A program made the translations under genes and the position numbers. From a virus, in the UHGV virus genome UHGV-0126855: a stretch of 10,874 nt of DNA, one strand, 5' to 3'. A model generated the notes under the pieces. The model searched no databases. It was not told the origin of the DNA and was given only the letters and a program-made list of their open reading frames with translations. Below, piece after piece: positions 1,304-7,578 of the stretch (the stretch's first letter is position 1; each line of letters begins with the position of its first letter).

Positions 1304-2347
1304 TTAAAGAATACTTGCCAGATACTTAAGTTGTCTTTGATATCGAGTAACCGACTGGTTAACTTGTAACCTTTTCCCTTCACTTACTGTATGGAAGCGA
1401 CCAACTTTTAGCTGTGATATTGGTATGCTTTCAGCCCCACTAATTTGCCCGCTTGATACAAAATCATCTGTAACCACAATTGCTTTGCTAACATCTTCAT
1501 CGGCAAAGAGATGACTGTATTTTTCAGCGATTTTTACAGCTCTCTCTATGTACATTTGAGATGCGCGACCTGGTGTTGATGATTTACGGCTTTTTGAACC
1601 AGCCATTGTCATTACGATCGCTGCTACTTTTGGAGCCCCAAGCCCACCCGCACGCTCATTCCATAATACAAAATCTTTTGATTTATTTGCCAGCATTTCC
1701 ATTGTGAGATGAAGTGACTCAATTGAGTGTTCATCTACGCGTACAGGGATAATCAATGCCTCAGACGCGCACCATGCTAGGTGTGTTCCTCCAGCATAGA
1801 AGGGGCTTGTATCCATCAATAAAATTTCGCATTTTTTGTCTTTCGCTTCATCGTTCATTATTGCGCGAAGAGAATTTAATAGTGTTGATACTGCTTTTGG
1901 TTCTCCGCGAGATAGCGCTACTTGTAGTTGTTGATACATGCTTGATGGGAAAGCGAATAGCTCAGGATCACCTGGAATCGCATAACATGCCTTACCACCT
2001 TTAAAATCTGGGCAGAAATTACTTACTCGATATGAAATATCTTCTGGCTGCTCACCAAAAGCTGGACCCAGCATTTTTGGTGTCAGTGCATTAGCTATTG
2101 TTACAACCGGTTTTTCACCACGCAATAGTGTCTCCGTTAAATTACATTGCGGGCATAAGTCAGCCACTAATACGGAGTTACGTCGTGACAGCTCATAGGC
2201 GAGGTTGAATGTCATCGTGGACTTACCAACACCACCGCGCAGATTGGAAACTGCATAACTTTTGAATTTTGGCCCGCCATCTACGACGTAACCTTCCTCA
2301 ACAACTTGTGCATAGCGTGCCATTACTGACTCAACTACAGTGCTCAT
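1304..2347 (-). CDS. ParA/MinD/Soj-family P-loop ATPase (347 aa) with a ~100-aa uncharacterised C-terminal extension; orphan, with no ParB partner
   Basis: Deviant Walker A RGGVGKST (aa 37-44), A' motif VLVADLCPQCNLT (aa 59-71) and Walker B-like EILLMDTSP (aa 174-182). Strong SD AAGGAGG (plus-strand cctcct 2355-2360) sits 7 nt from ATG. It has its own promoter region and is flanked by terminators. Confidence 0.8.
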   Translation of the reverse strand: MSTVVESVMARYAQVVEEGYVVDGGPKFKSYAVSNLRGGVGKSTMTFNLAYELSRRNSVLVADLCPQCNLTETLLRGEKPVVTIANALTPKMLGPAFGEQPEDISYRVSNFCPDFKGGKACYAIPGDPELFAFPSSMYQQLQVALSRGEPKAVSTLLNSLRAIMNDEAKDKKCEILLMDTSPFYAGGTHLAWCASEALIIPVRVDEHSIESLHLTMEMLANKSKDFVLWNERAGGLGAPKVAAIVMTMAGSKSRKSSTPGRASQMYIERAVKIAEKYSHLFADEDVSKAIVVTDDFVSSGQISGAESIPISQLKVGRFHTVSEGKRLQVNQSVTRYQRQLKYLASIL

Positions 2348-2603: not shown

Positions 2604-3320
<717 letters not shown>

Positions 3321-4084: not shown

Positions 4085-4231
4085 ATGACAAAACAACTCA
4101 GTCCTTACCAGGACAAAATTCACAAACACATACTACGTGATCGCTTCCTGTCCAGCTTCAAGCAGCCTGGTCGATTCCGGGCTGAGTTGGAAAAAGTGAA
4201 GCTGATGCAGAAGGAGAAAGGTCATGAGTAA
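4085..4231 (+). CDS. Small hypothetical protein (48 aa) between cII and the O-like gene
   Basis: ATG 4085 is preceded by SD aggag (4075-4079). The [51 protein letters not shown] overlaps the O-like start by 8 nt. It is absent from the ORF track (presumably below its length cutoff). Confidence 0.4.
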
Positions 4232-5123
4232 CATATCTAATCTAGCCGAAGCCAGAGAGGCCAGAAGGCTACAACAACCGCATCAAAGCAGCGGTAAGGG
4301 GTATGCCTTGCTGCACCGTAAAATTATGGATGTGCCGTTTTACAAGGACGCAGAAGCAGCGCATCTGTGGGTTCACTTAATCCTCAAAGCAAAGCATACG
4401 CCTGAGTATGTAATGACTGACGCAGGAGAAATTCTGGTAGGCAGAGGGAAGCTACTTGGCGGTAGAAACTCTCTGGCGTTTGAAACAGGACTCAAACCAG
4501 ATCGCGTTCAGTACCTGCTTAGAAAGTTCAAAAAACTCGGCATGATTGACTGGGTTTCACACGGTAAATTCTCAGTTTTCTCGGTAGAGAAATATGACGA
4601 TTATCAGTCAAATTTTGTACCAGCAGATTACCAGCAAATTACCACCTCAAAGCCAGCAATACCAATGCCTGCAAGCAATACTGTACCAGCAGATTACCAG
4701 CAAATTACCACAGATAAAGAATATAATAATATTATCTCTAATACTGACGTATTAGAGAGTGCCACAGCAGACAAAAAGTCTGACAAGAAAAAACCTTCCG
4801 TCAGCTGTCAGGATGTTGTCGATGCTTACCACGAAATCCTTCCTGAAGCGCCAAGAATCCGCGCACTGAATGACAAGCGTAAAAACCAGATCCGAACGTT
4901 CTGGCGCAAAGCCGGAGTGATAACCCGCCAGCTTGACGGGCATGGGTTCACGATGCAGGACTGGAGAAATTATTTGAGCTACGTAGGCGAAAATTGCCGA
5001 TGGATGTTCGAAGAACGCCCAAACCATCAACGCGGAACCGTCTGGCACAAAAAGGGATTTGATTTCCTGCTTAACGACAATACCTACCTGAAAGTTCGTG
5101 AGGGTGAACACGATGACCGATAA
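4224..5123 (+). CDS. O-like replication initiator (299 aa) with the origin embedded in its coding sequence
   Basis: It occupies the O position upstream of the helicase. SD aaggag (4211-4216) precedes ATG 4224. Internal iteron DNA encodes the repeated peptide [10 protein letters not shown]. The stop overlaps the helicase start. Confidence 0.7.
4616..4745. repeat. Putative replication origin: iterons plus an AT-rich tract
   Basis: Identical 30-bp direct repeats tgtaccagcagattaccagcaaattaccac lie at 4616-4645 and 4682-4711. Each holds two ~13-bp sub-iterons CCAGCA(G/A)ATTACC, with a degenerate copy ccagcaatacc between them. The AT-rich agataaagaatataataatattatctctaatact follows. Confidence 0.6.
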
Positions 5124-7578
5124 TTTTTATGCGCCGCCCCATAGCATCGAGGCAGAGCAGGCGGTGATTGGTGGATTGCTTCTGGATGATGACAGCAGTG
5201 AGCGCGTCCAGAAAGTTCTGGCGATGCTGAAGCCTGATTCATTTTACAGCCGACCACACAAAATCCTTTTCGAAGAAATAACCAGAATGCACCGGGAGCA
5301 AAAGCCAGTAGATGGCCTGACGCTTTTCGATGAACTGGAGCGTAAATCGTTAACGGCGTCTGTTGGCGGTTTTGCTTATATCTCTGAGATCGCAAAGAAC
5401 ACGCCAAGCGCAGCAAACATCGTTGCCTATGCAATGCAGGTTCGTGAAACCGCAATGGAACGCTACGCCATCAACCGCATGACTGAAGCGACGGAATTGC
5501 TCTATTCCCGCAACGGAATGACTGCAACGCAGAAGTACGAAGCTATTCAGGCGATTTTCACGCAACTGACAGATCATGCAAAAACCGGATCGCGTCGCGG
5601 CCTTCGTTCATTTGGTGAGGTCATGGAAGACTGGGTTAGCGACCTTGAGAAGCGATTTGACCCGTCAGGCGAACAACGAGGAATGAGCACAGGGATCCCA
5701 TCGCTGGACAGGATGCTGTCACCGAAAGGTCTGGTGAAAGGCTCTCTGTTTGTCATTGGCGCTCGCCCTAAGATGGGGAAAGCGCAACCGCTTAATTCAC
5801 GCATTTTGCTTGCTGATGGTTCATGGACAACATTTCGTGACGTATGTGTTGGAGATTCCCTAGCATCAGTGGATGGACAACCATCATTCGTGTCTGGAGT
5901 TTTTCCTCAAGGGGAGCGAGATATTTACCGAGTTACGTTCTCTGACGGAAGAACCGTTGATTGCGCGGATGATCATTTGTGGGAAATTCATAGTAACCGT
6001 ATTACCGGTGGCGTTGATGTTGTAGACACCTGCCGCCTACGGGACATGATGGAATGCGTTCGCTATCAAAGCCGCATTCATGTTCCTGGTATTAGCGGTG
6101 ACTTCGGATTGCCTGTTGATTTAGGGATTAGCCCATGGCTGTTAGGTGCGTTACTTGGCGATGGAAATCTTGCAGGTACGCCACGAATCAGCATGACGGA
6201 ACCATACATCATTGAGCGAGTAAGATCTGAAGTGGGTGACGATATTGAAGTCAGACATGTTTCTGGCTGCGATTACTCCCTATCTCACAAGTTTAGCCGC
6301 AAATTATCTCTTACGCGGGTTATGCAACGGATTGGTATCTACGGCCGGATGTCAGAGATTAAAATTATCCCGGATATTATTTTTTCTGCTGATAAGCAAA
6401 CTCGTATTGATGTTCTATGCGGATTACTTGAAACCGATGGTTGGGTTGAAGGAAATAATGCCCTGCGCTTTAGCTCGGCAAGCAAGTTCCTGTCAGATGG
6501 TGTAAAGCGGCTGGTGCATTCTCTTGGTGGCGTGTGTCGTATGACAACCAAACAGGAGCCGAAATTCAGTTATAAGGGAGAAATGCGCAAAGGTATGGAT
6601 GCCCATATTTGCGCAATCAGGTTGCCTGATGAGGTTCTATCACACATAAAATCTCCACGCCTGAAGCAAAAATTCACTGCAAAACGCATCAAAACAAGTG
6701 CGCCTGTTATCACGTCGGTTGAGTATATTGGACGTGAAGAGTGCATTTGCATCATGGTATCCCACGAGAGACATTTGTATGCAACTGACGGATACATTCT
6801 AACCCACAACACCACGCTATACAGCCAGATGGCAATCAACTGCGCAGTGTATGAGAAAAAGCCCGCTCTGATATTCAGCCTTGAAATGCCAGGTGATCAG
6901 ATACTGGAAAAACTGGTAGGGCAGAAGTCTGGTGTTAACCCGAATATTTTTTACCTTCCGGCGACAAATGACGCCGATGACGGCTATCAGGGTGATTACG
7001 ATGGTGACTTCAACAGGGCGATCGAAACAGCCAATCGCTTGAGTGAAATCGACATGCTTTACATCGACGACACGCCGGGATTATCTCTGGCTCAAATCGT
7101 CAGCGAAAGCCGTCGAATCAAGCGAGAAAAAGGATGTGTTGGCATGATTCTGGTCGATTACCTGACACTAATGACCGCTGAGAAGGCCGATCGCAACGAC
7201 CTTGCTTACGGCATGATCACCAAAGGACTGAAGAACCTTGCCAAAGAGCTTGATTGCGTTGTTGTGCTTCTGACGCAGCTTAACCGCGCACTGGAAAGCC
7301 GAACCAATAAACGCCCATTACCAAGTGACTCGCGCGATACAGGGCAGATTGAACAGGATTGCGATTATTGGGTGGGGATCCATCGTGAAGGTGCTTTTGA
7401 TGACAGTGTTCCACCTGGTGAAACCGAACTAATCCTTCGTCTCAATCGTCATGGCAATACCGGCACGGTGTATTGCATTCAGGCAAATGGCGCTATTTAT
7501 GACACAGACCAACAGTCTGCTGAAATGCGCCGCCGTGAACGCGAGGAGCCGCAGTCCAAGAAGAAAGGAGGATTCTGA
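5113..7578 (+). CDS. DnaB-family replicative helicase, intein-containing (alternative start GTG 5098)
   Basis: N-terminus PPHSIEAEQAVIGGLLLD and the C-terminal half (KPALIFSLEMPGDQ…LTQLNRALESR…) align with E. coli DnaB from memory. The Walker A GARPKMGK|TT is split by a 343-aa insertion. Excluding the insert, the protein is about 470 aa. Confidence 0.9.
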   Translation: MTDNFYAPPHSIEAEQAVIGGLLLDDDSSERVQKVLAMLKPDSFYSRPHKILFEEITRMHREQKPVDGLTLFDELERKSLTASVGGFAYISEIAKNTPSAANIVAYAMQVRETAMERYAINRMTEATELLYSRNGMTATQKYEAIQAIFTQLTDHAKTGSRRGLRSFGEVMEDWVSDLEKRFDPSGEQRGMSTGIPSLDRMLSPKGLVKGSLFVIGARPKMGKAQPLNSRILLADGSWTTFRDVCVGDSLASVDGQPSFVSGVFPQGERDIYRVTFSDGRTVDCADDHLWEIHSNRITGGVDVVDTCRLRDMMECVRYQSRIHVPGISGDFGLPVDLGISPWLLGALLGDGNLAGTPRISMTEPYIIERVRSEVGDDIEVRHVSGCDYSLSHKFSRKLSLTRVMQRIGIYGRMSEIKIIPDIIFSADKQTRIDVLCGLLETDGWVEGNNALRFSSASKFLSDGVKRLVHSLGGVCRMTTKQEPKFSYKGEMRKGMDAHICAIRLPDEVLSHIKSPRLKQKFTAKRIKTSAPVITSVEYIGREECICIMVSHERHLYATDGYILTHNTTLYSQMAINCAVYEKKPALIFSLEMPGDQILEKLVGQKSGVNPNIFYLPATNDADDGYQGDYDGDFNRAIETANRLSEIDMLYIDDTPGLSLAQIVSESRRIKREKGCVGMILVDYLTLMTAEKADRNDLAYGMITKGLKNLAKELDCVVVLLTQLNRALESRTNKRPLPSDSRDTGQIEQDCDYWVGIHREGAFDDSVPPGETELILRLNRHGNTGTVYCIQANGAIYDTDQQSAEMRRREREEPQSKKKGGF
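5782..6810 (+). other. Intein (~343 aa) with a LAGLIDADG homing endonuclease domain, inserted in the helicase P-loop
   Basis: The insert lies between GARPKMGK and TT(LYSQMAINCAV). It ends in THN followed by Thr +1 (nt 6802-6813). Two LAGLIDADG-type motifs are present: LLGALLGDGNL (aa 348-358) and LCGLLETDGWV (aa 440-450). The N-terminal boundary at Ala229 is inferred to within a few residues. Confidence 0.75.

Follow-up and report, generated by a model that had tools for sequence, protein, structure and literature searches.

Class 3 inteins are defined by a co-varying Trp-Cys-Thr (WCT) signature (PMC2807308), and the closest known analogue by site of the element described here is, to judge from the sequence, the class 3 intein in the P-loop of the mycobacterial DnaB helicase (DnaBi1). 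The element is an insert of 343 amino acids (aa) in a phage DnaB-family replicative helicase, encoded by a stretch of 10,874 nucleotides (nt) from the virus genome UHGV-0126855 (this whole stretch is referred to below as the window). An earlier note, made from the letters of this DNA, had read the insert as a class 3-like intein containing a LAGLIDADG homing endonuclease and splitting the helicase P-loop. We report here that the insert is very probably just that, i.e. a full-length class 3 intein with a LAGLIDADG homing endonuclease, lodged in the Walker A P-loop of the helicase.

The mycobacterial DnaB P-loop inteins (Msm DnaBi1, 6BS8; Mle DnaB; MchDnaB1, 6RIX/6RIY) have the same type of host protein as the insert in the window, a DnaB helicase, and interrupt it at the same site, after the GK of Walker A and before the P-loop Ser/Thr (PMC6195587, PMC7664689). 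This insertion point, which in DnaB-family helicases lies between the Walker A Lys and the Ser/Thr next to it, is called site 'b' by Kelley et al. (2018; PMC6195587). Like the insert, these inteins have Ala at position 1, the block B His and Trp, the block F Cys and a Thr-His-Asn end. By contrast, they are chromosomal mini-inteins devoid of endonuclease, whereas the window intein is 343 aa long, has an apparently functional LAGLIDADG domain and resides in an enterobacterial prophage helicase. The similarity is confined to the splicing blocks (E 1e-6), and the window intein has Ala at B:7 and Thr at +1 where DnaBi1 has Asp and Ser.

The class 3 prototype, the MP-Be intein of phage Bethlehem, resembles the window intein in other respects: it is full-length (341 versus 343 aa) and phage-borne, it contains two LAGLIDADG motifs, and its residues W67, C320, T339-H340-N341 and Thr+1 match the numbering pattern found in the window (PMC2807308). 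Endonuclease activity has been demonstrated for MP-Be (PMC5050341). The two inteins are nevertheless only 26% identical over 267 aligned residues, and MP-Be begins with Pro instead of Ala. The earlier note took MP-Be to be a DnaB intein, which proved wrong. This intein maps to Bethlehem gp11 (903 aa, L009 7260-9971), a hypothetical protein in GenBank. Kelley et al. (2016) list the Bethlehem intein among the terminase inteins (site TerL1-c, gene name gp10) and locate the -c and -d sites in a poorly conserved helix and not in the P-loop (PMC5050341). The annotated DnaB-like protein of Bethlehem, gp62 (273 aa), contains no intein, and a tblastn search of the 30-52 kb half of the genome returned nothing. 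On this mapping, the historical name 'MP-Be DnaB intein' is misleading.

Two inteins of E. coli lambdoid phages are nearer in setting. The insert in the DnaB-type 'DNA helicase' of Stx2a-converting phages (TL-2011a, Stx2a F578 and others) occupies the same P-loop site (AARPGMGK/A...VTHN/T) and has the same Ala1, HLW, C-x-C block F and THN; it is 46-47% identical to the window intein over the full length. It belongs to another lineage (AMAL... versus AQPL... in the window), with exteins 30-35% identical to those of the window, and none of the papers that we found treats it as an intein. The intein of the phi24B/Min27 Stx-phage primase-helicase, also a lambdoid replication protein of E. coli, has been published (PMC3430580). 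Its host is different, a TOPRIM primase fused to a gp4d-type helicase, in which the intein spans residues 372-702. It was the only intein found in the literature on lambdoid and Stx-phage helicase inteins, a search that did not cover InBase listings and that returned nothing on the window intein. In 2016, inteins were considered to be apparently absent from E. coli and Salmonella (PMC5050341).

Boundaries and class 3 residues of the insert

The features of the helicase gene and its insert are listed below by window position; the limits of the HINT and endonuclease domains are approximate.

5113..7578, plus strand: precursor of the phage DnaB-family replicative helicase, at the P position, 821 aa (TIGR03600, 554 bits, in two stretches)
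5113..5781, plus strand: N-extein, 223 aa, ending in GARPKMGK, the first part of Walker A
5782..6810, plus strand: intein, 343 aa, Ala1 (GCG) to Asn343 (AAC); 1029-nt presence/absence relative to VT2-Sakai P
5782..6060, plus strand: N-terminal part of the HINT domain (about intein residues 1-93), with blocks A and B; beta-strand region of the AlphaFold2 model
5974..5982, plus strand: block B His65-Leu66-Trp67, with His B:10 and Trp B:12 (the W of WCT)
6100..6690, plus strand: LAGLIDADG homing-endonuclease domain (about intein residues 107-303), in frame and including Lys194 (AlphaFold2, PADLOC)
6139..6171, plus strand: LAGLIDADG motif 1, LLGALLGDGNL, intein residues 120-130, acidic residue Asp127; helix in the AlphaFold2 model
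6415..6447, plus strand: LAGLIDADG motif 2, LCGLLETDGWV, intein residues 212-222, acidic residue Asp219 (Pfam LAGLIDADG_3)
6748..6750, plus strand: Cys323, block F:4, predicted class 3 initiating nucleophile; aligns to Cys118 of Msm DnaBi1
6802..6810, plus strand: block G Thr341-His342-Asn343, i.e. the Thr of WCT, the penultimate His and the terminal cyclising Asn
6811..6813, plus strand: Thr+1 (ACC), first residue of the C-extein and P-loop Thr
6811..7578, plus strand: C-extein, 255 aa and stop, remainder of the DnaB C-terminal ATPase domain

The host protein is clearly recognizable on both sides of the insert. The NCBIfam model phage_DnaB (TIGR03600) exceeds its cut-off, and its match is interrupted around the insert, the second of its two stretches beginning at protein residue 567, the +1 Thr; Pfam DnaB and DnaB_C also match the exteins strongly. 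The length of 826 aa given by the earlier note holds for the open reading frame (ORF) starting at a GTG (5098-7578, plus strand). The ATG at 5113, which RefSeq also uses, is the more likely start and gives a precursor of 821 aa. NCBI contains this exact 821-aa protein under the name 'helicase DnaB', with E. coli, Salmonella enterica serovar Alachua and Shigella boydii as sources, whereas the 826-aa form is absent from the protein collection searched. The 821-aa helicase has 449 members in its 90%-identity cluster, and is also found on contigs from the human gut and other metagenomes, with an identical gene order.

The boundaries of the insert were fixed at the DNA level by comparison with intein-less alleles. 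In 87 phage records (among them VT2-Sakai, Stx1/Stx2 phages and the PA series), the helicase is 98.6-98.8% identical to that of the window apart from a clean 1029-nt gap; relative to VT2-Sakai P, there are 20 differences in 1452 nt of extein. Compared base by base, the empty site of VT2-Sakai P reads ATGGGGAAA/ACGACG and the window ATGGGGAAA/GCG...CACAAC/ACCACG. Since this alignment cannot be shifted by a single nucleotide, the intein begins with Ala and ends with Asn, and Thr is the +1 residue. The position of the insert in the earlier note (5782-6810, 343 aa, splitting Walker A) is thus exact, and the Ala that it had proposed for residue 1 is now established. In the 826-aa numbering, GARPKMGK corresponds to residues 221-228 and LTHN, which TT follows, to residues 568-571; the insert separates the Walker A Lys from the Thr (GARPKMGK/intein/TT), which is site 'b' of the DnaB P-loop. 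The base composition changes within the insert (window 5750-6750): the AT skew is about -0.10, as against +0.15 in both helicase flanks, and the GC content falls from about 0.50 to about 0.45-0.48. This reversed skew and lower GC are consistent with a foreign origin of the insert.

An intron was considered and rejected, since Rfam at gathering thresholds detects no intron or other RNA family in the whole window and the insert reads through without interruption, in frame with the helicase. Short ORFs in other frames or on the other strand inside 5782-6810 (6236-6505, plus; 6339-6551, minus; 6570-6839, minus) are regarded as mechanical.

All the elements of a class 3 intein are present: Ala1, H65, W67, C323, T341-H342-N343 and T+1. 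The five motifs quoted in the earlier note (LLGALLGDGNL, LCGLLETDGWV, DDHLW, EECICIMV and LTHN) lie where it had located them. DDHLW occupies intein residues 63-67, its Trp being W295 in the 826-aa numbering, and EECICIMV residues 319-326; the block F Cys that the note had seen in the latter can now be narrowed down to the second one, C323, and not C321. Indeed, comparison with the solved structures aligns W67, C323 and T341 with W67, C118 and T137 of Msm DnaBi1. In alignments with the DnaB inteins of M. smegmatis (6BS8) and M. chimaera (6RIX/6RIY), both of class 3, the two ends of the insert have counterparts, HLW facing HQW and THN facing THN, and the N-terminal part of the HINT domain aligns to Msm DnaBi1, MchDnaB1 and gp41-1. 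The top sequence match in the PDB, 6RIZ, was discounted as natural evidence because it is an engineered protein, gp41-1_WCT (PMC7664689).

An exhaustive HMMER search (phmmer) of 1.84 billion representatives yielded 2760 representative clusters related to the intein at E<=1e-30; a word-indexed protein search gave 28 matches only and under-represents the family. Most of the best 150 matches are proteins of about 780-840 aa in which the match lies near residue 200-230, the layout of a DnaB helicase interrupted by an intein at its P-loop. From these best 150 of the 2760 clusters, 136 full-length copies of the intein were extracted and aligned. Five residues do not vary in any copy (136/136), namely the block B His, Trp B:12, Cys F:4, Thr G:5 and the Asn at the end, and the penultimate His is present in all copies except one (135/136). 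Residue 1 is non-nucleophilic in 130 copies, 107 of which have Ala; GK directly precedes the intein in 118. At +1, where class 3 inteins have Ser or Thr and rarely Cys, Thr predominates (124 copies), with Ser in 11 and Cys in one. Whereas C323 is invariant, the position of C321 is variable (Ala in 54 copies, Cys in 29, Thr in 27). The WCT residues, which align to experimentally defined class 3 residues and are conserved throughout these relatives, thus point to class 3, as the earlier note had surmised. In the endonuclease domain, Asp is found at the position of D127 in 106 of the 136 copies and at that of D219 in 133, and Lys194, present in the window intein, is conserved in 134; in 28 copies, Asn replaces the first catalytic Asp.

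Some metagenomic members of the family (P0049, P0051, P0052, P0075, P0116, P0155, P0191 and P0193) are unusual: several contain two copies of the intein family per polypeptide, and some copies sit at a PhoH-like site (YMRGR/) or at other non-GK sites. A few metagenomic copies start with Cys or Ser while retaining the full WCT triplet.

The predicted structure of the insert agrees with these assignments. An AlphaFold2 model, built from a 23-sequence alignment, has a predicted local distance difference test (pLDDT) score of 89.7 and a predicted template modelling (pTM) score of 0.90. In this model, the insert displays both a HINT fold and the double alpha-beta-beta-alpha-beta-beta-alpha fold of LAGLIDADG enzymes, with its two acidic-residue helices. 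When it was compared with the PDB using Foldseek, the best matches were endonuclease-containing inteins, namely PI-SceI (TMq 0.70), TliVMA, PhoVMA and PI-PfuI; the predicted splicing domain matches the class 3 mini-inteins MchDnaB1 and Msm DnaBi1 (TMt 0.81-0.85) and the predicted endonuclease domain matches I-DmoI. The PADLOC HEase models also match the endonuclease domain, at 1e-6.

Maintenance and transfer of the intein

The reading frame of the intein is intact, with no stop codon, in each of the 20 further copies inspected, of which 8 come from RefSeq E. coli genomes and 12 from IMG/VR. Nine near-identical alleles (the window and the 8 RefSeq copies) display 6 synonymous and 5 conservative non-synonymous differences, none of which affects a catalytic position. 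A more diverged copy, 81% identical in nucleotides and 87% in amino acids, is found in a third helicase family on the IMG/VR contig L028. Relative to this copy, the ratio of non-synonymous to synonymous substitution rates (dN/dS) is 0.062 overall, at a dS of about 1.2, and amounts to 0.053 for residues 1-105, 0.076 for residues 106-300 (endonuclease) and 0.031 for residues 301-343. These low values in the splicing and endonuclease segments alike suggest that both functions are maintained by selection.

One derivative is truncated. The protein P0002, encoded on a 235,726-bp NCBI/Logan contig, is a chimeric ORF of 565 aa that consists of part of the N-extein and the first ~110 residues of the intein (99% identical), joined directly to a PF11134-domain protein. 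It looks like a prophage deletion with a breakpoint inside the intein.

Among 5426 complete E. coli genomes, 389 contain the helicase family and 18 the intein (at least 99.5% identity). No close copy was found in the GTDB species-representative genomes, a result of little weight for an intein whose frequency among E. coli genomes is only about 0.3%. The same intein, with at most 5 of 1029 nt different, interrupts a second helicase family in two strains, ET791 and ET846, and on two contigs of IMG/VR, although the exteins of this family are only about 65% identical in nucleotides, and 61-68% in amino acids, to those of the window. Outside the intein, the identity between the two families collapses within about 12 nt on the upstream side and 8 nt on the downstream side. 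The intein has therefore been transferred between diverged helicase genes. Both families are polymorphic for its presence, with 18 carriers out of 389 in family 1 and 2 carriers out of 9 in family 2, the 7 others being intein-less. Similarly, P0001 is 80% identical to the window in the N-extein and only 50% in the intein, while its intein is 65% identical to that of the Stx2a phages, from which its exteins are far removed (30%). By these comparisons, intein and extein similarities are incongruent.

The junctions carry synonymous markers. The empty sites (...ATGGGGAAAACGACGCTATAC... in family 1, ...ATGGGTAAAACCACGCTGTAT... in family 2) read exactly GGGAAA/ACG in 349 of 357 family 1 records, and the ACC version is found intein-less in 0 of 351; all 16 intein-carrying copies of family 1 examined, window included, have ACC at +1. 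In family 2, the two empty sites examined read GGTAAA/ACC and the four intein-carrying copies GGGAAA/ACC. These are the changes that short co-conversion tracts from a GGGAAA/intein/ACC donor would leave. Since the markers are linked to the intein, they argue that the polymorphism reflects gain and not precise loss. Together, the near-identity of the intein in diverged helicases, its low dN/dS and the linked markers argue, if indirectly, for active splicing and recent homing.

Strain ET846 (NZ_CP100895.1; L016) contains two copies of the intein and two copies of the family 2 helicase. A related isolate from the same site, ET896 (frog faeces), has an intein-less family 2 helicase at a similar chromosomal coordinate, and the two strains may constitute a natural before-and-after pair for homing.

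Alternatives and the proposed splicing pathway

Several observations weigh against an active class 3 intein. The Pfam scores are below gathering (22.3 versus 22.5 for LAGLIDADG_3, 19.2 versus 32.1 for Hom_end_hint). Residue B:7 is an Ala, otherwise seen in the nearest relatives alone; class 1 inteins have a Thr and Msm DnaBi1 an Asp proposed to be important (PMC6195587), and the window intein has neither. A class 1 intein onto which WCT had been grafted failed to splice (PMC7664689), so that the triplet alone is no proof of activity. Our literature search retrieved no expression, splicing or cleavage data for this intein or for relatives at least 46% identical to it. The intein is present in 0 of 50,697 deposited phage records, which leaves the viability of an intein-carrying phage putative. 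Finally, RefSeq (PGAP) annotates the helicase as two pseudogene fragments ('incomplete; partial in the middle of a contig'), with the 1029-nt intein left unannotated between them, in all 8 RefSeq copies inspected (L001 5332-7797; L010-L016). This is in effect to consider the insert as a dead remnant that does not splice, the helicase as a pseudogene and the prophage as unable to replicate, an interpretation that would account for the pseudogene halves, for the failure to find the insert in any isolated phage of the phage collection and for the truncated, fused derivative P0002, and for which Arth_1007, a class 3-like pseudo-intein that does not splice and has a WDT triplet, provides a precedent (PMC3196547). 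We nevertheless regard it as highly unlikely: the frame is intact in the window and the 20 other copies, within a cluster of 449 members, the catalytic residues are all in place, dN/dS is 0.03-0.08 over the splicing and endonuclease segments at a dS of about 1.2, and the neighbouring replication and nin genes of the window are intact. As for the pseudogene label, it arises because homology breaks at the intein, and not from any lesion.

If the intein is functional, the question arises of its splicing route. The earlier note had opposed its reading to an ordinary class 1 intein, with a Cys or Ser at the true N-terminal junction and no WCT equivalents; this standard class is ruled out by Ala1, which provides no nucleophile, by the full WCT and by the fact that no alternative boundary is possible. 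Class 2 inteins also have a non-nucleophilic residue 1, as the Ala1 shared by the window intein and the KlbA inteins illustrates, and in Mja KlbA Cys+1 attacks directly; they are, however, devoid of WCT (PMC2807308), whereas here the triplet is complete and +1 is a Thr, and the KlbA type was rejected on these grounds. More generally, a KlbA-like attack by residue +1 or a class 1-like route with another nucleophile, for which C321, two residues before C323, could be a candidate, appears extremely unlikely: position 1, at a boundary fixed by DNA, is not Cys, Ser or Thr, and C321 is not conserved among the relatives in which C323 is invariant. It is also conceivable that the intein splices with an inactive endonuclease and that its presence or absence reflects ordinary mosaic recombination between prophages and not homing. 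Lambdoid phages do recombine extensively, the modules flanking the helicase vary among the intein-carrying prophages, and the Asn found in place of the first catalytic Asp in 28 of 136 relatives shows that decay occurs in the family. Still, general recombination at 65% identity is not expected to produce breaks so close to the ends of the intein, the synonymous junction markers delineate a short tract resembling co-conversion, and the endonuclease domain retains Asp127, Asp219 and Lys194 with a dN/dS of 0.076, which makes this alternative very unlikely too.

We therefore favor an active class 3 intein, for which a pathway can be proposed by homology to MP-Be and Msm DnaBi1, two inteins whose mechanism has been dissected by experiment (PMC2807308, PMC6195587). 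Translation would give an 821-aa precursor whose P-loop is split and which is presumably ATPase-dead. Because residue 1 is an Ala, Cys323 (block F:4) is the predicted initiating nucleophile: positioned with His65, Trp67 and Thr341, it would attack the Lys-Ala1 peptide bond, giving rise to a block F thioester branched intermediate on Cys323, of the kind that has been trapped for MP-Be and Dra Snf2 (PMC2807308). The N-extein would then be passed on to the hydroxyl of Thr+1, cyclisation of Asn343 would release the intein, and an O-to-N shift would restore GARPKMGKTT in a helicase of ~478 aa. The endonuclease of the freed intein (Asp127, Asp219, Lys194) would cut the P-loop coding sequence of intein-less helicase alleles, and repair from the intein-carrying copy would install the intein. 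As the intein parts the Walker A Lys from the Thr, the precursor should be inactive as an ATPase and, by analogy with other P-loop inteins (PMC6195587), phage replication should need splicing. A further, more speculative possibility, which we consider unlikely, is that the intein is more than a passive parasite. Its endonuclease could serve as a weapon among lambdoid phages resident in, or infecting, the same cell, cutting the helicase gene of intein-less rivals and thereby excluding or converting them, and conditional splicing could tie prophage replication after induction to the cellular state. A possible route for such conditional splicing would be redox or zinc control through the C321-x-C323 pair at the catalytic Cys, by analogy with the control demonstrated for Msm DnaBi1.

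The window intein belongs clearly to a family that is very large and already known, in which it is an ordinary member. The occurrence of class 3 inteins in the P-loops of helicases and their proposed phage origin are established, and no concept is changed. What is added here is the evidence for recent homing across three helicase families, a setting in E. coli and lambda that lends itself to work on class 3 inteins, and the recognition of a systematic error of annotation. Lambda-like prophages of E. coli, Salmonella and Shigella house a class 3 intein that is complete, endonuclease included, and apparently active. They are among the most tractable of phage-host systems, where splicing chemistry, homing, co-conversion and any conditional control would be open to standard lambda genetics. 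The presence of the same intein in three helicase families, with junction markers alongside, offers an unusually clean snapshot of recent homing. As to the annotation, the splitting of an essential phage gene that looks intact into two pseudogenes, seen in each RefSeq copy inspected, would bias calls of prophage intactness.

Prophage setting

The window corresponds to that part of a lambdoid prophage in which the genes for immunity and replication lie. Besides the helicase, it contains the following genes.

Minus strand: N, in the lambdoid immunity region
1304-2347, minus strand: ParA/CbiA-like ATPase, 347 aa (Pfam CbiA/AAA_31), directly downstream of cI
2604-3317, minus strand: cI, lambda-like
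Ahead of the helicase: cro and cII, replication/immunity module
4224-5123: O-like initiator, replication module
After the DnaB-type helicase: Lar, NinB, Dam, NinG and NinH

Other genes resembling homing endonucleases were noticed in two intein-carrying prophages: in strain AMSCJX03, an HNH endonuclease gene directly follows the helicase (L012 3379-3990), and on a metagenome contig an HNH_3/AP2 ORF comes after the Q gene (L003 14450-14962).

In the window, the ParA/CbiA-like ATPase holds the position that rexAB occupies in lambda. The NCBIfam ParA models match it weakly and over the N-terminal P-loop only, and PADLOC gives no meaningful match. It could be a moron expressed in the lysogen or an exclusion gene.

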